This document shows positions 936 to 53,799 of a stretch of 64,000 nt of DNA, piece after piece. The stretch covers positions 213 to 64,212 of the forward strand of contig CAZUXR010000001.1 in NCBI GenBank assembly GCA_964624785.1, given 5' to 3'. The translations under genes and the position numbers were made by a program. Each line of letters starts with the position of its first letter. Position 1 is the stretch's first letter. The notes beneath the pieces are model-generated. The model was not told the DNA's origin, made no database searches, and was given only the letters and a program-made list of their open reading frames with translations. Origin of the DNA: an uncultured Candidatus Saccharibacteria bacterium. GTDB lineage: Bacteria; Patescibacteriota; Saccharimonadia; Saccharimonadales; UBA10212.

Positions 936-1301
936 ATGAACATTCTGCTTCACTGGGCACTGATATTCGCCTGTACGAGCATTGTCTGCTTCGTGGGGTC
1001 ATCGGTGCTCGATCGGTACTGGTGCCCCATCTTCGAACCTGAATGGCCGTTCACTGTTCTGGCCTTTGGGTCGGTGATGCCCGGCTTACTTGCCAGCATG
1101 TGCCTGGTGGCCTTCGTCGTAAGGGCAACCGATTTTTGGTTGCTCCCCATCACAGTGGTTTCGGGTCTGATGCTTGGATTCTTCTATTTGGTTGAGGATG
1201 ATGATGAGTACCTCGCCGCGCTGTCCGGAGCCAATGCGATGCTTGGTGGCAGCATAATCGCCGCGATCGGGGCAACAATCCCACCACCACCCTTTCTATA
1301 G
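936..1301 (+). CDS. hypothetical small membrane protein (about 4 TM) inside high-GC islet 1
   Basis: 121-aa ORF with hydrophobic segments. A hand count of nt 1021-1080 gives 35/60 G+C, against about 45% in neighbouring genes. No recognisable family. Confidence 0.45.
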   Translation: MNILLHWALIFACTSIVCFVGSSVLDRYWCPIFEPEWPFTVLAFGSVMPGLLASMCLVAFVVRATDFWLLPITVVSGLMLGFFYLVEDDDEYLAALSGANAMLGGSIIAAIGATIPPPPFL

Positions 1302-11951: not shown

Positions 11952-14900
11952 TCAGCGCTTGTGGTTTGTTAGTAGATAATCTTGCCAGGCTTTTGGCTGT
12001 GAACCATCAATGTCTAAGTCGCCCAAACACTTAACTAGCAGGCGACCGAGTTCGCCGTTGGTAATTAGTGGCAAGTGATTATCGATTGCTACACGCCGGA
12101 TAATGTAGCCGTCGTTTCCATCCAGCCCGTCTTCGGCCGGAATACTGATCATCAGCGATATTTTTTGGTCCGCAATTGCGGATTCTACGCTAGGTTCGCG
12201 GCGGTCTTTGATTTTATAAAGAAGCGTCGTCTGCACCCCGTGCTCTTTAAATAAGTCGTGCGTACCGGGAGTAGTATATACATTCCAGCCCTTTTTGATA
12301 AGCTTTGCCGTAACTTCAACAAACTTGAATTTATATTCATCCGGCAATGCGAGAAACAAATTTTTGCCTTTTAGATTTTGTTCGGTCGCCAACCACGAGC
12401 GCATAAATGCCTCGTCCAAGCTGCTGCCAAAGCAGGCCACTTCCCCGGTAGAAGCCATCTCTACACCCGCCACTGGATCGGCACCTTTTAGTCGATTGTA
12501 AGAAAATTGCGGACTCTTCACTCCAACGTAATCGTACTCCAAAGTTTGGTAGCGAATATTATTTTCTATTCCTAAAATCGCTTCTGCAGCAATTTGTATA
12601 AAGTTGTGCCCGGAAATTTTAGAAATAAACGGAAACGAACGCGACGCCCGCACATTGCATTCAATTACTTTTAGCTGGTTATCTTTGGCAATAAACTGCA
12701 CGTTGAACGGGCCGGTAATGTTTAGGTTGGCGACAATTTGGCGCGTAATATTTTTGGCTCGACGGACTGTTTCTAGATACAAACTCTGCGCCGGGAACAC
12801 CACAGTCGCATCGCCGGAATGTACGCCTGCATTTTCTACGTGCTCGCTTATGGCATATATAATCAGCTGGCCATTACTGGCAACTCCGTCAATTTCTAAC
12901 TCCTTCGCATGAGTAATAAACTGCGAAATCACCACCGGATGGTCGGGCGACAGTTTTGCTGCTTCTTTTAGATACCGGGCAAGTTCTTGCTCGTTACCAA
13001 CTACGTTCATCGCCCCGCCGGACAAAACATATGATGGGCGAATCAAAACCGGATAGCCAACACGAGCCGCAAAAACTTTGGCGCGCGCAAGGCTAGAAAC
13101 TTCTTGCCAGGCGGGTTGATCAATATTGAACTCGCCGAGCATGGCCGAAAATTTTTGCCGGTCTTCTGCGCGGTCGATGTCTTTAGCTTTTGTTCCAAGA
13201 ATCGGATAACCTGCCCGCTCTAGCGGCAACGCAAGGTTGTTAGCAATCTGCCCACCCACGGACACAATAATTCCCTGCGGGCGTTCAAAATCAGCAATAT
13301 CACGCATTCGCTCCAGCGTTAATTCCTCAAAATACAAGCGGTCGGAACGATCAAAATCGGTCGAAACCGTCTCTGGATTGGAGTTAACAATGATTGTTTT
13401 GCGCCCACGGGCCTGCAAAGTTTTAGCAGTATTAACCGCACACCAATCAAACTCCACCGACGAACCGATGCAATACGGACCAGAACCAACCACAACAACG
13501 GCCTTACCGTCCAGTGGCTCAATGTCGTCTTCCTGCCCGTGGTAGGTCGTATAAAGATAGTTAGTTTTAGCGTCAAACTCGCCAGCAAGTGTGTCGATTT
13601 GTTTAATTACGGGTTTGATTCCGAGCTTTAGTCGGCGTCTTCTAATTTCTTCTTCTGTCTTACCTTTTATAAAAGCCAGTGCTTTGTCGGAGAATCCGAC
13701 TTGCTTAGCCGCCCGCAGTAAATCCTCGTTCAGATTATTTTTTTTGACCTCGCTTTCCATATGCGCGATGTCGGCAACTTGACCCAAAAACCATTTGTCG
13801 ATTTTAGACAGATCGTGAATTTTGTCCACGCTTACCCCACTTTTAAGCGCCTCATAAATTGCAAACAACCGCCGATCAGTGGCACGAGTAATTTCTTCTA
13901 ATGGATCGTCAAAATCATGCAGCTCAGTGCTCAGTCCGTCGGCACCAATATTTAGCATACGCACTGCTTTTTGCAGAACTTCTGGGAACGACCGCCCCAA
14001 AGCCATAACTTCTCCCACGCTCTTCATTTCTGATCCAATTTGATGGTCGCTAGATTTTAGTTTGGTTAGATCCCAACGCGGCATTTTTAGTGCCAAATAA
14101 TCCAGCGCCGGTTCGTAAAATGCCGATGTTTGACCAGTCACAGCGTTTTTAAGCTCAGGCAAAAGCTTGCCCAAACTCAGTTTGGTTGCCACGAATGCCA
14201 GCGGATAGCCGGTCGCTTTAGACGCTAGCGCGCTGGAACGGCTAAGCCGAGCGTTAACTTCAATAACCCGATAGTCGCCATTTTCTGGGTTAAGGGCGTA
14301 CTGGATGTTGCACTCGCCAATTATTCCTAAGTGGTTAATGGTTTTGATCGCTACTTCACGCAAATGATGATATTCGCGGTTAGTTAAAGTTTGCGACGGT
14401 GCCACCACAATGCTCTCGCCAGTGTGAATTCCCATTGGGTCAAAGTTTTCCATGTTGCAGACCGTAATTGTGTTGCCTGCTCGGTCGCGCACAACTTCGT
14501 ATTCGATTTCTTTCCAGCCGCGCAGGTATTCTTCTATCAAAATTTGTGGGGCCGCTTTAAACGCCGGCGCGGCTTTTTTGCGAAGTTCGTCTGCATTGTT
14601 TACCCTGCCCGACCCCAGTCCGCCAAGACTAAAGCCCGAGCGCAGCATTACCGGATAGCCGATTTTTTCGGCCGCCGCAAGCGCTCCGCTTAAATCATAC
14701 GTGGCGATACTGCGAGCTGTTTTAATATCAATCTGTTTTAGCGCATCTTTAAAAAGTTCGCGGTCCTCGGTTATGTTGATCGTGTCGACCGGAGTACCCA
14801 GAACTTTAATGCCAAGTTTTTTAAACACGCCGATTTCGTATAATTTTAGTCCCAGATTTAGCGCGGTCTGGCCGCCAAAACTTAGCAGTACGGCGTCTGG

Positions 14901-15140
14901 TTTTTCGCGTTTTAGAATTTTGGTAACTTCGCCCACGTTAAGCGGCTGAAAGTAAACCCGGTCCGCCATATCGTGGTCGGTCTGCACGGTCGCAATGTTT
15001 GGATTAATCAGCACCGTTTCTATCCCATCCTCTTTTAATGCTTTAATGGCCTGCGATCCAGAATAATCAAACTCGCCAGCCTGGCCTATGCGCAGACCGC
15101 CAGAGCCGAAAATGATCGCCTTCCTTATTTTTGTGCTCAT
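11952..15140 (-). CDS. carB: carbamoyl-phosphate synthase large subunit
   Basis: 1062 aa with duplicated ATP-grasp halves and N-terminal GSGGLRIGQAGEFDYSG. Its start overlaps the carA stop (ATGA). Confidence 0.95.
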   Translation of the reverse strand: MSTKIRKAIIFGSGGLRIGQAGEFDYSGSQAIKALKEDGIETVLINPNIATVQTDHDMADRVYFQPLNVGEVTKILKREKPDAVLLSFGGQTALNLGLKLYEIGVFKKLGIKVLGTPVDTINITEDRELFKDALKQIDIKTARSIATYDLSGALAAAEKIGYPVMLRSGFSLGGLGSGRVNNADELRKKAAPAFKAAPQILIEEYLRGWKEIEYEVVRDRAGNTITVCNMENFDPMGIHTGESIVVAPSQTLTNREYHHLREVAIKTINHLGIIGECNIQYALNPENGDYRVIEVNARLSRSSALASKATGYPLAFVATKLSLGKLLPELKNAVTGQTSAFYEPALDYLALKMPRWDLTKLKSSDHQIGSEMKSVGEVMALGRSFPEVLQKAVRMLNIGADGLSTELHDFDDPLEEITRATDRRLFAIYEALKSGVSVDKIHDLSKIDKWFLGQVADIAHMESEVKKNNLNEDLLRAAKQVGFSDKALAFIKGKTEEEIRRRRLKLGIKPVIKQIDTLAGEFDAKTNYLYTTYHGQEDDIEPLDGKAVVVVGSGPYCIGSSVEFDWCAVNTAKTLQARGRKTIIVNSNPETVSTDFDRSDRLYFEELTLERMRDIADFERPQGIIVSVGGQIANNLALPLERAGYPILGTKAKDIDRAEDRQKFSAMLGEFNIDQPAWQEVSSLARAKVFAARVGYPVLIRPSYVLSGGAMNVVGNEQELARYLKEAAKLSPDHPVVISQFITHAKELEIDGVASNGQLIIYAISEHVENAGVHSGDATVVFPAQSLYLETVRRAKNITRQIVANLNITGPFNVQFIAKDNQLKVIECNVRASRSFPFISKISGHNFIQIAAEAILGIENNIRYQTLEYDYVGVKSPQFSYNRLKGADPVAGVEMASTGEVACFGSSLDEAFMRSWLATEQNLKGKNLFLALPDEYKFKFVEVTAKLIKKGWNVYTTPGTHDLFKEHGVQTTLLYKIKDRREPSVESAIADQKISLMISIPAEDGLDGNDGYIIRRVAIDNHLPLITNGELGRLLVKCLGDLDIDGSQPKAWQDYLLTNHKR

Positions 15141-16476: not shown

Positions 16477-17319
16477 ATGAATCAAAAAGTTTTAATGTCT
16501 GGGGCGGAATATTTTACGGATGAATTCGCCATTAATCCTTACTACGGCTCCGGTCCTGCGGTAGATACCGCCGCAGCTGTCGCCGAACACAAGTCAATCC
16601 AAGCCGCACTTAAAAAAGCCGGGGTAGAAATAGTTAAGGTTGACGCCCCGCCTGGCTGCCAGGACGGCGTCTACACTGCCAACTGGGGACTTTGCCGCGG
16701 CAACAAGTGCGTGTTGTCTTCCCTGCCAAACAAACGCTCGAGCGAGGAACCTTATGCAGAAAAAGTACTCCATGAACTCGGCAAAGAAGTCACTAAACCA
16801 CCTATGCGTTTTAGTGGCCAGGGCGACGCCTTGCCCTGCGGCGATTACTTATTCGCCGGATCTACCTACCGCACCGACCCAGCAATTCACAAATTTTTAG
16901 CCGACACTCTTGGTTTTAAAGTAATTTCCTTGCAAACCGTTCCTAAATTAGACGATTATGGCCAACCACTGATCAACTCCGTTACTGGCTGGCCGGACAG
17001 TTTTTTCTACGACATCGACCTGGCGCTGTCCGTACTCACACCCAACCTTATAGCATGGTGCCCAAGCGCGTTTACGCCGCAAAGTCAGGACAAAATCAGC
17101 GCCTTGCCGATGGGCAAAATCGAAGTCAGCCACAAAGAAGCCGTCGAAAATTTTGCCTGCAACCTACTTAGCACCGGTCAAACTGTGGTAATGAGCAACA
17201 GCGCGCCGCAGTTTAAAGCAGCCATAGAAGCCCGCGGCCTAAAAACCATTACGCCGCGCATCACAGAACTCGGCAAAGGCGGCGGCTACATCCGCTGCAC
17301 CACTCTTACCTTGGAATAA
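16477..17319 (+). CDS. guanidino-group modifying enzyme superfamily protein (amidinotransferase / DDAH / arginine deiminase-related fold)
   Basis: 280 aa ending ...GKGGGYIRCTTLTLE (C-terminal catalytic Cys motif of the superfamily). The N-terminal VLMSGAEYF...INPY is typical of this family. Confidence 0.6.
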   Translation: MNQKVLMSGAEYFTDEFAINPYYGSGPAVDTAAAVAEHKSIQAALKKAGVEIVKVDAPPGCQDGVYTANWGLCRGNKCVLSSLPNKRSSEEPYAEKVLHELGKEVTKPPMRFSGQGDALPCGDYLFAGSTYRTDPAIHKFLADTLGFKVISLQTVPKLDDYGQPLINSVTGWPDSFFYDIDLALSVLTPNLIAWCPSAFTPQSQDKISALPMGKIEVSHKEAVENFACNLLSTGQTVVMSNSAPQFKAAIEARGLKTITPRITELGKGGGYIRCTTLTLE

Positions 17320-22853: not shown

Positions 22854-23150
22854 CTACTCGACGGCAGCAAAGAACATCGTCAGTGCCGAGAGAACGGTCA
22901 GTAGCCCTCCGAACCCCCAGTAGCCGGCGATCGGCTCACTTCCGTGGCCCTGTGCCACGAAGTAACTCTGCGAATCAACGCCGAAGCCGGCGAAGACCGC
23001 GACAGCCACCAACCACAGCAGCGCCGCTGGCAAGCGCATCCACGAGTTCAACCCACCGGATTCCGCGGCGTAGATGAAGCTGAGGAGTGCTATCACTACC
23101 GGCAGCAACGCCGTAATGCACAGAAGTCCGACGCGAATACCATCCGACAT
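22854..23150 (-). CDS. hypothetical 98-aa membrane protein (3 TM) in high-GC islet 4
   Basis: Hydrophobic ORF. nt 22861-22920 hand count is 36/60 G+C. Several overlapping alternative-frame ORFs are typical of GC-rich DNA. Confidence 0.45.
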   Translation of the reverse strand: MSDGIRVGLLCITALLPVVIALLSFIYAAESGGLNSWMRLPAALLWLVAVAVFAGFGVDSQSYFVAQGHGSEPIAGYWGFGGLLTVLSALTMFFAAVE

Positions 23151-49497: not shown

Positions 49498-50178
49498 TCA
49501 TGATTTGTATTTTCCAACTGCTTTATCGCTTACAATATGCCCGTCTTTTATGGTTACCACGCGGCGCTTTAGCGCATTAACAATCTCTTGATTGTGGGTG
49601 GTCAGCAGTACGGTGGTACCAAAGCGGTTAACTTTTTCTAGAACTTTTATAACGTCCCAGGCGTGCTTAGGGTCCAAGTTGCCGGTAGGTTCGTCGGCGA
49701 TCAGGATTTTGGGCTGGCGAACAATTGCCCTAGCGATCGCCACGCGCTGGCGCTCGCCGCCAGAAATTTCTAGCGGGTAGCTGTGTTCTTTACCCTTTAA
49801 CCCTACCAGATCAATTACTTTTGGCACTGTGTGTTTGATCTCTGCTGTTGGGATTCCGGCGATTTCTAGTGCGAAGGCTACGTTTTCGTAAACGGTTTTA
49901 TTAAGCAGCAACTTAAAGTCCTGGAACACCACGCCAATCTTGCGGCGCAATAACGGAATATCTTTGTCTTTTAGGTGTTCGTAGTCGATCCCGCCAACGA
50001 TTATTTTGCCGCTTGTGGGCTTTTCTTCCCTGGTGAGCAGTTTGAATAATGTAGACTTACCCGCCCCGGACTGGCCAACAATAATTACAAATTCCTTAGG
50101 CTCGACATGCAAAGAAATACGCTCTAGCGCTGGCCCTCTGTGGGTGTAACTCTTAGTCACTCTGTCGAGTAAAATCAT
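49498..50178 (-). CDS. ftsE: cell division ATP-binding protein FtsE
   Basis: Walker A GQSGAGKST, signature ISGGERQR and Walker B ILIADEPT. 226 aa. Confidence 0.9.
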   Translation of the reverse strand: MILLDRVTKSYTHRGPALERISLHVEPKEFVIIVGQSGAGKSTLFKLLTREEKPTSGKIIVGGIDYEHLKDKDIPLLRRKIGVVFQDFKLLLNKTVYENVAFALEIAGIPTAEIKHTVPKVIDLVGLKGKEHSYPLEISGGERQRVAIARAIVRQPKILIADEPTGNLDPKHAWDVIKVLEKVNRFGTTVLLTTHNQEIVNALKRRVVTIKDGHIVSDKAVGKYKS

Positions 50179-50179
50179 C

Positions 50180-50346
50180 AGGACTTACGCGCCATACCCT
50201 TCCAAGCCGGGCAAAGCACGCCATTGAATGCTATTTTTGACACAATAGTTAATTTTTGTCTGCGATACTCGCGCACCGTACCACTTGTACGCCTTGCTCC
50301 GTTTCTCGCCAAGAAATTCACTCTTGCGCTCAAACGCGTAAGTCCT
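50180..50346. repeat. 167-bp stem-closed module (12-bp perfect terminal inverted repeat)
   Basis: AGGACTTACGCG (50180-50191) pairs with CGCGTAAGTCCT (50335-50346). It encloses most of a doubtful 56-62-aa minus-strand ORF. Confidence 0.7.
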
Positions 50347-50387
50347 GTTAGCCATATGAACCCAGTATAACATGAGCGGTTTAGGCT

Positions 50388-50906
50388 TTATATTCTGGGT
50401 AGAGTAACGCCAGTTTTAAGAGACACTTCTTTTGCCCAACTGATCATAATGGCAAGTTTTTGCTCTAGCTCTAAAGATTCTTGAGCTTTAAGATTGGGAT
50501 GTCGTTTTTCTAGAGCAACTATCCGCATATAAATTTCTTTGATATCGCTTTCTACGCCCATCAGGCGATTGTCGATTTTTTCCATCCACTCGGCCATTTC
50601 CTGGTGCCCGCGCTCCAGGCTGGTCATTCGACCTTCCAGGCTTCCCATGCGCCCTTCTATATTTTCCATACGTCCATCAAGACTCTCAAAGCGCTGGTCA
50701 ATCTGCTCAAAACGCTGGTCAATCTGCTCAAAACGCTGGTCGACTTGCTCAAAACGTTTATCCATATTTATAGCCAAAGCACCGATCGATTCGGCAACAC
50801 TTGTAGCGAGATCACTGATCGACTCAGCAATATCGTTCACACTTGCCGTAAGAGTGCTTATCGACTTGGTAATGTCATCCTTATTTGTGCTTCCCGTAGT
50901 TGCCAT
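50388..50906 (-). CDS. coiled-coil protein with tandem 7-aa (21-nt) repeats
   Basis: FEQVDQR FEQIDQR FEQIDQR FESLDGR MENIEGR MGSLEGR MTSLERG. The underlying 21-nt tandem repeats span about 50620-50765. Confidence 0.6.
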   Translation of the reverse strand: MATTGSTNKDDITKSISTLTASVNDIAESISDLATSVAESIGALAINMDKRFEQVDQRFEQIDQRFEQIDQRFESLDGRMENIEGRMGSLEGRMTSLERGHQEMAEWMEKIDNRLMGVESDIKEIYMRIVALEKRHPNLKAQESLELEQKLAIMISWAKEVSLKTGVTLPRI

Positions 50907-51168
50907 AAATTAATTATACCTAAAAAACCTTAACAAGTTCTTTGTATTTATTACGTCAACTCGATTCGCTGTTTACAGCTTTTTTTGTTTTTGAATCATC
51001 TGTAGTCGAGTCAACGGGAGCTCGCCGTGCTTATTGCTTGATCGCGGTTGCGATCGAGCACGCACAGGCGAGTCCCGCCGGAGAGGTTTAATTTGGCTAA
51101 TCCTCTCTAAAAGCCACTTATCACGGTCGACGCTACTTCGCGAGATACTGTCTATGGTCCGAATCGAG

Positions 51169-51420
51169 TCAGTTACGCTCGAAGGTCATGACCTTGACCA
51201 GCCTTTCCCACGCGGTCGTACCTGGCCAGCGCTTACGCGAGTTCCAGATAACGATGTAGACGAGGTTGCCAATGAGTACCAGAATAGTACCCAAGTTGCT
51301 TACAGCCCACGCCGCATCACCATGTCCTACGGCAAACAGACAGGCCGCAGCAATGATGATGACGACGAGGGGGGCAACAACAGTCCAGCACGCCTTTACA
51401 AAATTCACCTTTATTTTCAC
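51169..51420 (-). CDS. hypothetical 83-aa membrane protein (2 TM) in GC-elevated islet 5
   Basis: Hydrophobic ORF. Hand counts are 37/60 (51181-51240), 27/60 (51241-51300) and 34/60 (51301-51360) G+C. GC-rich hairpins lie downstream at 51030-51110. Confidence 0.4.
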   Translation of the reverse strand: MKIKVNFVKACWTVVAPLVVIIIAAACLFAVGHGDAAWAVSNLGTILVLIGNLVYIVIWNSRKRWPGTTAWERLVKVMTFERN

Positions 51421-51492
51421 CTCCTCTTAGCTAGGCATAGCGAGTTTTGTAGTAATATTTATAACACAATGTTATAAATAGAGCAATTATAT

Positions 51493-52575
51493 TTAGATGT
51501 TGTGTTCGAGCCAGGATTCGATTAGGGGGTCTAGGTTGCCGTCTAGGACGGTTTGGGGGTCGGAAGTTTCGTAGCCGGTGCGCAGGTCTTTGACTTGTTT
51601 ATAGGGGTGTAAAACGTAGCTGCGGATCTGATTGCCCCACTCTGCCGATTGATTTGGGCCTTTAAGCTCACTCAACTTTTCGGCGTGCTGTTGCAGTTGC
51701 AAGGCCGCCAAGCGGGAGCGCAAAATCGTCATGGCTGTTTCTTTGTTTTGAACCTGAGAACGCTCGTTTTGAATACTTACCGTTAGGCCGGTTGGAACGT
51801 GCGTTATGCGCACAGCCGAGTCGGTGGTATTTACTGATTGGCCGCCGTGGCCGCCAGCACGATAAACGTCAACTTTAAGATCATTGTCATCAATTTCTAG
51901 CTCGCCAGGTTTGTCGATTTTTGGCATTACCTCTACCTTGGCAAAACTGGTTTGGCGCAGGTTGTCGGAATTATAAGGGCTCAACCGCACCAGGCGGTGC
52001 ACACCGTGCTCGCCCGCTAAACGGCCGTACAAAAAATTACCGCCGGAAAGTTCGAGTACAGCGCTTTTTATCCCGGCTTCTTCTCCAGAAGTTTGAGAAT
52101 CGGTTTGGACTTTTAGCCCGTGCTTTTCGGAGTAGCGAACATACATGCGCAGCAGCATAGCAGCCCAATCCTGAGCATCGGTGCCGCCCGCGCCGGCGTA
52201 AATTCCTAAAATTACATCGTGGTTGTCGTAGGGGCCACTAAAGCGAAGCTCGCGCTTAAGGGACGAGAATTGAGAATTGAGAATTGAGAATTTAGCTTCG
52301 AGTTCGGGCTCTAGGCTGGAATCATTTAGGCTAATTAATTCCGCTAGTTCGCGGGCGTCTTTTTGCAGGTTTTCCCAGGGTTGAATGCGAGAACTAAGCG
52401 CCGATTCTTGCTTACTTATATCCTGAGCCTTAGTGCTATCTTGCCAAAAATCCGGCTCCGCTATAGCAGTTCGCAAACCCGCTAATTCCGACTTTAGTTC
52501 ATCTAATTTTAGCTGAGCAACCGTCTGGGTAATGTCTTTATTAAGCTCACTAGCCCGCCTTTTAAGCTGTTCCAC
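51493..52575 (-). CDS. prfB: peptide chain release factor 2 (uninterrupted ORF, no programmed frameshift)
   Basis: GGQ motif (GGHGGQSVNTTDSAVRITH). The RF2-type recognition loop reads LVRLSPYNS (SPY at the SPF position). Confidence 0.9.
   Translation of the reverse strand: MEQLKRRASELNKDITQTVAQLKLDELKSELAGLRTAIAEPDFWQDSTKAQDISKQESALSSRIQPWENLQKDARELAELISLNDSSLEPELEAKFSILNSQFSSLKRELRFSGPYDNHDVILGIYAGAGGTDAQDWAAMLLRMYVRYSEKHGLKVQTDSQTSGEEAGIKSAVLELSGGNFLYGRLAGEHGVHRLVRLSPYNSDNLRQTSFAKVEVMPKIDKPGELEIDDNDLKVDVYRAGGHGGQSVNTTDSAVRITHVPTGLTVSIQNERSQVQNKETAMTILRSRLAALQLQQHAEKLSELKGPNQSAEWGNQIRSYVLHPYKQVKDLRTGYETSDPQTVLDGNLDPLIESWLEHNI
52265..52292. repeat. four perfect GAGAATT heptamers (AATTCTC on the coding strand) inside prfB
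   Basis: gagaatt occurs 4 times at 52265-52292 and encodes AKFSILNSQFS in RF2 domain 1. The same 7-mer occurs in the intergenic mosaics. Confidence 0.9.
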
Positions 52576-52663
52576 GCGGAACTCCTTCGGAGTTATTTAT
52601 CATTTGCCGCTGCGTATTTTTCATTAATTTCATCATCTATCATTTTACACTTGAACGATACTA

Positions 52664-52747
52664 GCGTACAGCGGCCAGGGGTTAGCGGACAGGAATTTCG
52701 GATCTGAACGCTAAACGCTATACGCAGTACGCTAGCCGGTTTATATA
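52664..52747. repeat. heptanucleotide mosaic, copy D (partial)
   Basis: GCGTACA GCGGCCA GGGGTTA GCGGACA ... GAACGCT AAACGCT ATACGCA GTACGCT AGCCGGT TTATATA. The AACGCTA block shares about 30 nt with copy B. Confidence 0.65.
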
Positions 52748-52831
52748 AACAGATACGAAGTTCTAAATCTCAAGGATTAACCCCCGAGCGCTAAAAAAAG
52801 CGCCCGGGGTAATCCCCACAGCAGCAAACCG

Positions 52832-53473
52832 CTACAGCAGCAAACCGGCGCGCTCAGCTCTTTTCTGGAGTCGGTTGAAGTGACCGAGCAGGATGCGCGC
52901 TTCTTCTGGGTCCACCATCGTCTGGTCGACGCTGTTGAGCCCGTCGAGTCCGCGACCCAGCTCAAGTAAACCTTTACGGATCAGCCCGAGGGTGATCTCT
53001 CTGCGGTGAGTATCGGCATACTCACGGTCGGAGCCTGACAGCATGCGGATGACCTCGTCGTGGATCTTGTTGGAGTCGGCATCGAAGTCGAGCAGGATGC
53101 GCGAGGCCACACCATCGTCCTCGCGCACCAGCCCGAGCAGGATGTGCTCGGTGCCGATGTAGTTGTGCCCCAGGGCCAGCGCCTCGCGAAACGCCAGCCC
53201 GAGGACCTTCTTGGCCCTCGGGGTGAACGGGATCTGCCAGAAGGTGACCTCCTCGCCGGAACCGACGGCTCGCACGATCTGGACGCGCACGCGCTCGACG
53301 GTGATGTCGAGGCTCTGAAGGACCCGCGCGGCCAGGCCTTCCTCCTCGCGGAGGAGCCCAAGCAGAATGTGCTCGGTGCCGATGTAGTTGTGCTTGAGGG
53401 TTCTGGCTTCTTCCTGCGCAAGCATGACCACTTGCCGCGCCCGTTCGGTATACCTTTCGAACAACTTTCTCAC
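52832..53473 (-). CDS. stand-alone Clp N-terminal (double Clp_N repeat) domain protein, ClpC1-NTD-like, in high-GC islet 6
   Basis: FERYTERARQVVMLAQEEARTLKHNYIGTEHILLGLL ... IPFTPRAKKVLGLAFREALALGHNYIGTEHILLGLV closely parallels the actinobacterial ClpC1 N-terminus. There is no AAA+ module. The likely true start is the TTG at 53464, preceded by AGGTGA, giving MFERY... nt 53101-53160 hand count is 41/60 G+C. Confidence 0.8.
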   Translation of the reverse strand: MRKLFERYTERARQVVMLAQEEARTLKHNYIGTEHILLGLLREEEGLAARVLQSLDITVERVRVQIVRAVGSGEEVTFWQIPFTPRAKKVLGLAFREALALGHNYIGTEHILLGLVREDDGVASRILLDFDADSNKIHDEVIRMLSGSDREYADTHRREITLGLIRKGLLELGRGLDGLNSVDQTMVDPEEARILLGHFNRLQKRAERAGLLL

Positions 53474-53645
53474 CTGTCTTTCGCTAGTCTTGCTTGTAGG
53501 GATTTTTGAGGATTTTAACTAAACGCAAAATACACGTTTGATCAAAAAGAACCTCATATCTATTTATAAAAAGTGCTAAAACCCCGATAAACCTCGAAGG
53601 CAATAGCTATATTATAAAACAGCCATCAGCAAAAAGCAAAGATCC

Positions 53646-53799
53646 GGCTTTGAGTTATGGTTTGTAGTTTATGGTTTATGGGCTAACCCTGAACACTAAA
53701 CGCTATCCGCTGTACGCTTTTCTTCATTCTCAATTCCCCATTCTGAATTCTAAATTCCTGGTATTTAAGCTCTGGGCTCTCAGCTCTTAGCTTCCCAGA
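53646..53799. repeat. phase-locked heptanucleotide mosaic, copy B
   Basis: 22 consecutive 7-mers in one register. The blocks are AGTTATG GTTTGTA GTTTATG GTTTATG, then GGCTAAC CCTGAAC ACTAAAC GCTATCC GCTGTAC GCTTTTC, then TTCATTC TCAATTC CCCATTC TGAATTC TAAATTC, then TTAAGCT CTGGGCT CTCAGCT CTTAGCT. It overlaps the last codons of the M16 gene. Confidence 0.8.

Follow-up and report, generated by a model that had tools for sequence, protein, structure and literature searches.

A stand-alone ClpC N-terminal domain of actinobacterial origin in a Saccharimonadales genome, a candidate decoy of a host proteolytic pathway

Why should the genome of a Saccharibacterium carry a near copy of the N-terminal domain (NTD) of an actinobacterial ClpC, detached from the rest of that protein? 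The question is raised by a small gene, here named clpN, on the minus strand of a 64,000-nucleotide stretch of contig CAZUXR010000001.1 (assembly GCA_964624785.1), referred to below as the window. An earlier note, drawn from the letters of the stretch alone, had described a stand-alone ClpC1-type NTD with a helical tail and without AAA+ modules, encoded by DNA of foreign composition with an actinobacterial affinity. The origin and the reality of clpN proved solid. Its function we infer: with a probability of roughly 0.55, the product would be a mimic or decoy of the ClpC N-domain that acts on the ClpC pathway of a presumed host.

The coding sequence (52832..53464, minus strand, TTG start, TAG stop) specifies 210 amino acids and is set apart from its surroundings by composition. 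Its GC content is 0.623 and its GC content at third codon positions (GC3) 0.808, compared with a mean GC3 of 0.476 (standard deviation 0.077) over the 62 non-overlapping open reading frames (ORFs) of the window, among which it ranks first with z = 4.3. For the N-domain segment alone GC3 rises to 0.87. The GC-rich stretch spans approximately 52785 to 53470 in a genome of 46% GC; the hand counts on which the earlier note had based its reading of foreign DNA (41 of 60 at 53101-53160 versus 23 of 60 at 53581-53640) are exact, and the scoring against all window ORFs bears that reading out.

Pfam matches the protein to Clp_N (PF02861) in two stretches (1.9e-36) and to nothing else of note. The two repeats make up a ClpC-type N-terminal domain at residues 1-145 (53030..53464, minus strand), delimited by Pfam, PDB, blastn and AlphaFold2. 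Neither Pfam nor NCBIfam finds an AAA+ module, the ORF ending at residue 210, and the NCBIfam models for ClpB, ClpC and ClpA touch the N-domain only, with scores far under their cut-offs. An AAA+ Clp gene is likewise absent from the rest of the 64-kb window, where tblastn with a full ClpC recovers residues 5-143 only. The AlphaFold2 model, calculated from a 63-sequence alignment, has a predicted local distance difference test (pLDDT) score of 91 overall and of 95-99 in the N-domain, which superposes on the ClpC1 NTD (3WDC/9DIN) with a root-mean-square deviation of 0.9-1.0 Å and a template modelling score of 0.95-0.96. Judged by its sequence, the product is a Clp_N-containing protein, neither a ClpC unfoldase nor a ClpC2 orthologue.

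What follows the domain is a C-terminal tail of 65 residues (amino acids 146-210; 52835..53029, minus strand), recognized from its coding GC pattern and the AlphaFold2 model. In this model helix α8 reaches residue 176, after which come a loop and a further helix, residues 186-205 (pLDDT 68-87), and the C-terminus is rich in Arg and Lys (...RLQKRAERAGLLL). The GC content by codon position, 0.72/0.39/0.68, is an in-frame coding pattern. No significant homologue of the tail was found by phmmer among 1.84 billion representatives using a 68-residue query, the one hit (E 2e-4, a protein of 1817 residues) being spurious; Pfam and a scan of JGI metagenomes gave nothing, and fold searches in PDB and BFVD gave no structural match. 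Neither the N-domain of the clpN protein itself nor the tail of the mycobacteriophage Myrna protein discussed below shows significant similarity to the clpN tail.

Where does the domain come from? In the PDB the closest structures are the Mycobacterium tuberculosis ClpC1 NTDs (8e-54), far above the chains of ClpC2 (9p2p, 6.7e-28; 8b9o, 1.2e-25; 8ad9, 6.8e-22) and plant ClpT. The nearest N-domains in a collection of 5.8 billion proteins are 87-88% identical over residues 1-145 and are named as ClpC of Solirubrobacteraceae or Solirubrobacterales, while Gaiellaceae-type sequences are about 76% identical. Compared with the Solirubrobacterales ClpC consensus, which is nearly invariant, the window N-domain is identical at 127 of 145 positions (18 differences). 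The nearest relatives are genuine clpC genes of Solirubrobacterales-type Thermoleophilia, and the proposed actinobacterial affinity is upheld. At the nucleotide level the identity is 84% to the clpC of locus L026 (362/430, blastn) and 81% to a second clpC. The alignment occupies window positions 53463-53034, from the second base of the start codon to codon 145, and blastn aligned no clpC homology upstream or downstream of codons 1-145. From this limitation of the alignment it follows that the copied segment corresponds, in sequence terms, to exactly the N-domain coding part of a high-GC Solirubrobacterales-type (Thermoleophilia) clpC. Both fetched donor-type loci carry a frameshifted full-length clpC in a lysS-clpC-radA-disA context on contigs of 68-70% GC. 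Horizontal acquisition is visible in the anomalous composition, the relatives in another phylum, the patchy presence and the native flanks.

We also considered whether the 87-88% database matches that appear to stand alone are paralogues, and dropped the idea: where fetched, they are frameshifted clpC genes of long-read assemblies. Such apparent stand-alone Clp_N entries from long-read soil assemblies (L025 4001-6607, L026 4001-6579 and many of P0055-P0115) have Arg/Pro-rich tails that are out-of-frame translations, and they constitute a trap when stand-alone N-domains are counted.

The flanks belong to a different kind of organism. Based on its genes the window is part of a Saccharimonadales genome, that of a soil Saccharibacterium, a tiny bacterium with a probable life on other bacteria. 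The flanking M16 peptidase led to relatives at 24 loci of species-representative genomes; the names are mostly those of Saccharibacteria or Saccharimonadales metagenome-assembled genomes, with a few of another or no phylum name. The order secA-pepM16-prfB-ftsE is found in all of these loci that reach far enough, in agreement with a Saccharibacterial genome, and the window contains the housekeeping genes carB, PBP2, CTP synthase, tRNA synthetases and FtsW. A Clp_N protein at this locus is present in none of the 24 syntenic relatives. The spacer between the peptidase gene and prfB measures 0-112 bp in the three closest relatives (peptidase 64-70% identical) versus 1204 bp in the window, and in some more distant relatives the gap holds an unrelated proline-rich membrane protein.

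The islet does occur in a second carrier, L027, a 95.6-kb contig of GCA_040384225.1 from a distant soil Saccharibacterium. Its SecA is about 63% identical to that of the window and of all 24 other loci, and because of this equal distance L027 is an outgroup to them. The gene order here is secA-pepM16-murE-murL-clpN-prfB-...-ftsE-ftsX, with clpN directly upstream of prfB as in the window. The encoded protein, P0034, has 354 residues and consists of the N-domain, a divergent second Clp_N domain and a tail; the N-domain is identical to the Solirubrobacterales consensus at 139 of 145 positions (6 amino-acid changes). The contig has 47% GC, its clpN 63.5% and the N-domain a GC3 of 0.81. The residues N116D and A121S are derived in both Saccharibacterial copies, and the last 25 residues of the window protein and P0034 (end ...LRRARVRAAKDGWL) show a weak, Arg-rich similarity (6 of 500 shuffles). 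The earlier note had counted closest homologues from the Candidate Phyla Radiation (CPR), with similar composition, as evidence against a transfer. This applies by half: one CPR homologue does sit at the same locus, but with its own high GC and at no smaller distance than actinobacterial ClpC it adds to the case for transfer instead of undermining it. A search for more carriers in metagenomes with the degenerate DNA pattern REDxGVASRILLDF returned only L030, an actinobacterial Clp_N gene with a transmembrane tail and 72% GC, and the second half of P0034 as a query returned only distant actinobacterial double Clp_N proteins.

Comparison of the two carriers also illuminates how the gene is expressed. 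The longest ORF (52832..53473, minus strand) has 213 codons if read from GTG, the length that the earlier note had given. The TTG at 53464, which the note had preferred, is the real start codon because all homologues begin with MFER at that codon; it is also the start of the deposited NCBI model (P0001, MFERY..., on the 65.8-kb contig). A Shine-Dalgarno sequence, AGGTGA, lies at 53470..53475 (minus strand) with the TTG 5 nt downstream, and in L027 an AGGTG stands at the same distance before a GTG start. Further upstream we find a putative promoter (53611..53639, minus strand) consisting of TTGCTT at 53639-53634, a 17-nt spacer and TATAAT at 53616-53611, whose -10 region aligns with TTGACC-17-TATAAT of L027. 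A strict consensus scan missed this promoter, the -35 element fitting at 3 of 6 positions only. Between promoter and gene runs an AT-rich leader of about 140 nt (53465..53610, minus strand, 32-37% GC) that by folding forms a hairpin, with TATGAGGTTCTT (53558-53547) pairing with ATCCTCAAAAAT (53513-53502) at its base. The blocks of the leader shared between the window and L027 over these approximately 140 nt form the base of the hairpin, and the leader alignment scores 25.7 versus 12.7 ± 2.2 for shuffled sequences (z = 5.8, 0 of 1000). Rfam gave no match for the leader.

The 3' region aligns equally well between the two carriers (z = 6.1, 0 of 1000 shuffles). It contains a hairpin resembling an intrinsic terminator (52774..52817, minus strand; GGGGATTACCCCGGGCGCT-TTTTT-AGCGCTCGGGGGTTAATCC), which with its flank has a folding energy of -44 kcal/mol; the outer stem GGGAT(T)ACC...T(A/T)AATCC is common to the window and L027, while the inner stem differs. 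The stop codon lies in a 16-nt tandem duplication (52816..52847, minus strand; CGGTTTGCTGCTGTAG / CGGTTTGCTGCTGTGG), the cores of the two units being the 14-mer ACAGCAGCAAACCG at 52818-52831 and 52834-52847, exactly where the earlier note had placed it. On the minus strand the unit at 52847-52832 carries the TAG stop and the unit at 52831-52816 reads TGG instead. The duplication had been proposed as a possible insertion scar, a reading that does not hold: L027 has one ...CTGTAG only, immediately 5' of GGGATACC, and because the stop-codon context and the downstream terminator are common to both copies, the duplication is internal to the cassette. It has the look of local slippage, the second unit having TGG in place of TAG through a change.

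With promoter, leader, Shine-Dalgarno sequence, TTG start, ORF and terminator, clpN has, as far as its sequence tells, the structure of a small autonomous cassette. One cassette type is present in two distant Saccharibacteria, a real shared gene; since L027 shares position, flanks and derived residues, a chimera is very unlikely. The first 15 codons (window 53464-53420; L027 8001-8045) are the most diverged part of both copies and have gained A/T-ending or AGR codons, E3 and E7 being encoded by GAA instead of GAG in each copy, which is consistent with an adaptation of translation initiation after transfer. Three further ORFs overlap clpN, at 53060-53509 (plus strand, 149 amino acids), 52981-53421 (minus strand, 146 amino acids) and 52777-52965 (minus strand, 62 amino acids); being antisense or in another frame, they are a by-product of GC-rich coding DNA and not genes.

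Outside the cassette, a 30-nt direct repeat occurs in two window copies only, which bracket the whole of it. The upstream copy (53689..53718, minus strand) is identical at 27 of 30 positions to the downstream copy at 52704-52733, which forms the 5' arm of a 75-nt imperfect palindrome (52661..52735, minus strand). Repeat and palindrome may represent a small palindromic repeat element, or else the footprint of a recombination. They were not found in the spacers between the peptidase gene and prfB of the relatives, spacers too diverged for an empty-site comparison. An integron cassette or mobile element was considered and rejected, as palindrome and repeat by eye lack the attC cores (RYYYAAC/GTTRRRY), and no recombinase gene is present between the peptidase gene and prfB among the window ORFs. 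Operators of the CIRCE, CtsR or ClgR type, looked for by eye in the flanks, were also dropped, and Rfam, tRNA and PADLOC searches gave nothing relevant.

How long has the segment resided in these genomes? Pairwise synonymous divergence (dS) of the gene amounts to 0.5-0.9 and dN/dS to 0.02-0.13, and housekeeping genes of the window and L027 are saturated at silent sites (proportion of synonymous differences 0.77-0.82). A recent spread, at first suggested by a dS of 0.9 between the Saccharibacterial copies compared with these saturated genes, was abandoned, as the window copy is near saturation too. We tested for shared synonymous codons by a permutation that keeps the codon usage of each gene. 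The sharing of the window copy with any other sequence is barely above codon bias (z 1.5-2.2), compared with z 4.3 for the L027 copy versus the L026 clpC and z 4.5 for the two actinobacterial clpC genes versus each other. Silent differences between the window and L026 mostly exchange C and G (24, versus 15 where the window has A or T), parsimony-informative silent patterns are distributed 6:5:4, a star, and a comparison in 45-nt windows shows neither a mosaic nor conversion tracts. That GC3 is still unameliorated (0.81-0.87, in genomes at 0.48) speaks for a short stay of the N-domain segment, and the remainder of both clpN genes, outside this segment, has a GC3 of 0.67-0.68. Two histories fit: a single capture, after which the gene passed laterally between Saccharibacteria, with the donors unsampled, or an older cassette whose N-domain part was re-copied from actinobacterial clpC.

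The pattern of replacements suggests that clpN encodes a working protein. The 18 substitutions in the window copy sit at positions that are variable in the family (87 of 10000 permutations, p approximately 0.009) and miss all 16 of the most conserved columns, and the L027 copy has 6 amino-acid changes versus 27 A/T-ending codons. It is because the ORF is intact, the gene has its own expression signals, the fold is kept and the conserved columns are spared that we favour a functional product.

Which known system does this product resemble? With the NTD of actinobacterial ClpC/ClpC1 (M. tuberculosis structures 3WDB, 3WDC and 6CN8) it shares the fold and the repeats, superposing as closely as stated above, at an identity of 61% to M. 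tuberculosis ClpC1 and 88% to Solirubrobacterales ClpC. Also in common with the ClpC1 NTD are the MFER N-terminus, the GTEH phosphoarginine (pArg) motifs and the residues F2, V13, F80 and K85. Unlike ClpC1, it lacks the AAA+ D1, M and D2 modules, and α8 runs on into a private helical hairpin; unlike ClpC, it carries 18 substitutions, among them V14M, E89G and L92F next to the ligand groove, and its gene is located in a 46% GC genome.

The closest analogue is gp251 of mycobacteriophage Myrna. Together with its Phabba homologue (PHROG 35667) it represents stand-alone ClpC1 N-domains of uncharacterised function, in which an N-terminal ClpC1 NTD identical to that of M. tuberculosis at 120 of 145 positions (83%) is joined to a unique tail of about 80 residues. 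The clpN protein matches the PHROG 35667 profile (3.7e-54) over profile positions 11-172 of 235 only, the tail part being unmatched. As in gp251, a near copy of the ClpC N-domain of the (presumed) host is combined with a private tail, in 226-235 residues in the phages versus 210 here. In contrast to gp251, the carrier is a cellular epibiont and not a phage, and the capture is independent and from another host lineage, the N-domains being 54-56% identical and the tails unrelated.

ClpC2 is more distant. Proteins of this family (Rv2667 type) have an N-terminal four-helix dimerisation and DNA-binding domain and are autorepressors by virtue of it (PMC10030653), whereas their C-terminal NTD-like domain is only about 40% identical to the ClpC1 NTD (PMC10030653, PMC13345244). 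This domain keeps one pArg site, and ClpC2 binds pArg and sequesters cyclomarin and rufomycin as a sponge (PMC13345244). Shared with clpN are a non-proteolytic, ClpC1-NTD-like domain and a Phe at the position equivalent to L92. Unlike in mycobacterial and Streptomyces ClpC2, Clp_N begins at residue 1 of the clpN protein, and with the much weaker PDB matches given above the ClpC2-type label of the earlier note has to be withdrawn. The Clp_N-only architecture is also found in actinobacterial stand-alone proteins (P0012, P0013, L028 and L030) and in plant ClpT1/ClpT2, and the double Clp_N of P0034 in L027 is like that of many of the actinobacterial ones. These proteins differ in having N-domains 30-77% identical and other tails (transmembrane, Zn-ribbon); their home is a high-GC genome or a plastid, and none of them is copied from the ClpC of a foreign organism. 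One of them, L028 4962-5750 (IMG/VR UViG_3300044840_000020), lies on a viral-classed contig of 61% GC; its ClpC N-domain is 72% identical, its helical tail of about 110 residues is unrelated to that of clpN, and it is a possible mobile N-domain copy in Actinobacteria.

The ligand sites indicate what the domain could do. The core of the hydrophobic groove (F2, V13, F80 and K85) is kept in the window N-domain, as are T30/E31, T81 and E106, which, from the repeat symmetry and the Bacillus subtilis literature, we take to be residues of the two pArg pockets. The four groove positions are contacts that cyclomarin, rufomycin and ecumicin have in common (PMC12913811, PMC10030653), and T6 and T105, kept as well, are the counterparts of T100 and T197 in the pArg site of M. 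tuberculosis ClpC2 (PMC13345244); F2, F80, T6 and T105, contact residues for cyclomarin, rufomycin and pArg, are present. We infer ligand binding, decoy action and site of action as follows. The N-domain would bind the ligands of an actinobacterial ClpC N-domain, that is pArg-marked or hydrophobic substrates, adaptors and cyclic peptides. Having no ATPase or ClpP-coupling parts, it would neither unfold nor degrade them and would act as a competitive mimic or sponge. The tail might serve self-association or mediate a partner or export contact. The target would be the ClpC pathway of the donor actinobacterium as the presumed host, in parallel to mycobacteriophage Myrna. Cultivated Saccharibacteria live on Actinobacteria, and the host ClpC pathway is favoured because of this and because the domain is a near copy of an actinobacterial ClpC. 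In this context, host clpC, clpP and clpX were found to be more highly expressed at the initial encounter of Schaalia and TM7x (PMC10768705).

Several points weigh against a decoy directed at a host. Only two carriers turned up among about 15 billion proteins, each a singleton cluster. The window copy is fast-evolving (18 amino-acid changes versus 6 in L027), and the pairwise dN/dS values of 0.09-0.13 are not reliable, since with codon bias taken into account the silent sites approach saturation. In or beside the drug and peptide groove V14M, S75F, G76W, E89G and L92F are changed, so that the ligand spectrum may differ from that of ClpC. Delivery is a weak point, no signal peptide being found on the protein; the window offers no resident AAA+ Clp gene; and an origin in Solirubrobacterales does not prove that Solirubrobacterales are the host. 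The main rival turns the protein inwards, as a sponge or sensor in the epibiont cytoplasm that buffers pArg-tagged or unfolded proteins or soaks up actinomycete cyclic peptides, much like mycobacterial ClpC2 minus its DNA-binding half. This we regard as possible, though on the unlikely side, and it hinges on a ClpC of the epibiont's own. ClpC2 provides a precedent, F2 and F80 are retained as the main cyclomarin and rufomycin contacts, no secretion signal is evident, and L92F is the very substitution that abolishes ecumicin binding in ClpC2 (PMC13345244). However, a sponge protects only cells with a sensitive ClpC, of which the 64-kb window has none, the domain is of the host type (88% to Solirubrobacterales ClpC) and not Saccharibacterial, and with the ClpC2 N-terminal domain missing there is no autoregulatory circuit.

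The other explanations are less probable still. The abrupt end of clpC homology at codon 145, the orphan tail and the many amino-acid changes in the window copy could be expected of a non-functional relic, a fragment of host clpC that integrated and decays with an accidental read-through tail; this is improbable in view of the intact ORF with Shine-Dalgarno sequence, promoter and terminator, the onset of homology precisely at the start codon instead of in DNA upstream of clpC, the in-frame coding pattern of the tail, the substitutions that spare conserved columns, and the cassette kept at the same site with similar flanks in a second distant genome. Equally little credit is due to an accessory that assembles or binds the epibiont's own ClpP in the manner of plant ClpT1/ClpT2. 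TM7x has a predicted Clp protease and ClpT structures are found weakly (4y0c/4y0b, about 1e-7; Foldseek rank 49), but the similarity is remote (27% identity), a near copy of a foreign ClpC N-domain would be unexpected for a co-evolved ClpP partner, and the gene is missing from 24 relatives that would need the same function. As to a chimeric assembly, or contaminating actinobacterial DNA that was joined to a Saccharibacterial contig, the GC step is sharp, actinobacterial clpC is plentiful in soil metagenomes, and exact-protein look-ups gave no independent contig across the junction. Nevertheless the foreign stretch is only about 690 nt long with native genes on either side in a 65.8-kb contig, it starts at the start codon without clpC upstream DNA or AAA+ body, its nucleotide difference to any clpC in the databases is 16% or more, the same arrangement is found in the independent assembly GCA_040384225.1, and two Logan runs re-assembled a different GC islet of this genome; an artefact is the least probable explanation by far.

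For the favoured decoy on a host ClpC pathway, a more specific version can be drawn up, which we consider doubtful in its entirety: the product would be an exported host effector that outcompetes host ClpC for pArg-tagged substrates and adaptors and thereby blunts stress proteolysis. Saccharibacterial type IV secretion genes were reported to be essential for epibiotic growth and to come without relaxases (bioRxiv 10.1101/2025.01.22.634366); export through such a relaxase-less system, with the Arg-rich C-terminus, the one conserved stretch of the tail, as a signal, is speculation. Host clpC DNA may from time to time serve as the template from which the N-domain part is copied anew, which would explain the 88-96% identity to host ClpC, the GC-richer N-domain and the missing silent-site grouping despite homologous flanks. 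Were the effector version true, the gene would name Solirubrobacterales as the hosts of these uncultured lineages.

Stand-alone ClpC N-domains were known before as antibiotic sponges, in ClpC2, and as uncharacterised proteins of mycobacteriophages. The literature that we searched did not yield an epibiotic CPR bacterium in which such a domain, nearly copied from a foreign ClpC, is kept as a cassette that looks expressed, and clpN is best described as a variant of this theme that is host-derived, resides in such a bacterium and has its own tail and regulatory flanks. ClpC/pArg proteolysis is essential in mycobacteria. If the mimic works, it would be among the first proteins of environmental Saccharibacteria to be candidates for host manipulation, with ClpC/pArg proteolysis as a precise target, and the donor signal provides a concrete host hypothesis, Solirubrobacterales, for soil Saccharibacteria without cultivated representatives. 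The parallel to Myrna gp251 suggests that parasites of Actinobacteria may resort repeatedly to jamming the ClpC N-domain.

Other parts of the window contain small genes of their own. The spacer between prfB and ftsE (50178-51493) has 1.3 kb, compared with about 30-55 bp in the closest relatives (L001-L003), and holds a coiled-coil protein of 172 amino acids with QRFEQID repeats (50388-50906) and a hydrophobic ORF of 83 amino acids (51169-51420), both of normal GC; in L027 two unannotated ORFs likewise lie in this spacer. The region around secA and ftsE has the look of a hot spot at which lineages carry small genes of their own.

A second strong GC3 outlier (0.747, z = 3.5) is located at 22854-23150 on the minus strand and encodes a predicted membrane protein of 98 amino acids that has no Pfam match and no homologue but itself in 5.8 billion proteins. 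This islet is real because its locus was re-assembled with the same neighbours in the Logan runs SRR9179560 and SRR9179561 (L032, L033). The ORF at 936-1301 (plus strand, 121 amino acids, GC3 0.656, z = 2.3), also without a Pfam match, is maybe another GC islet. Saccharibacteria are usually described as biosynthetically poor. The window encodes a full carbamoyl-phosphate synthase large subunit (11952-15140, minus strand) and a DDAH/amidinotransferase-like protein (16477-17319, plus strand; Pfam DDAH_eukar, 3e-11), both genes being related to arginine and pyrimidine metabolism.

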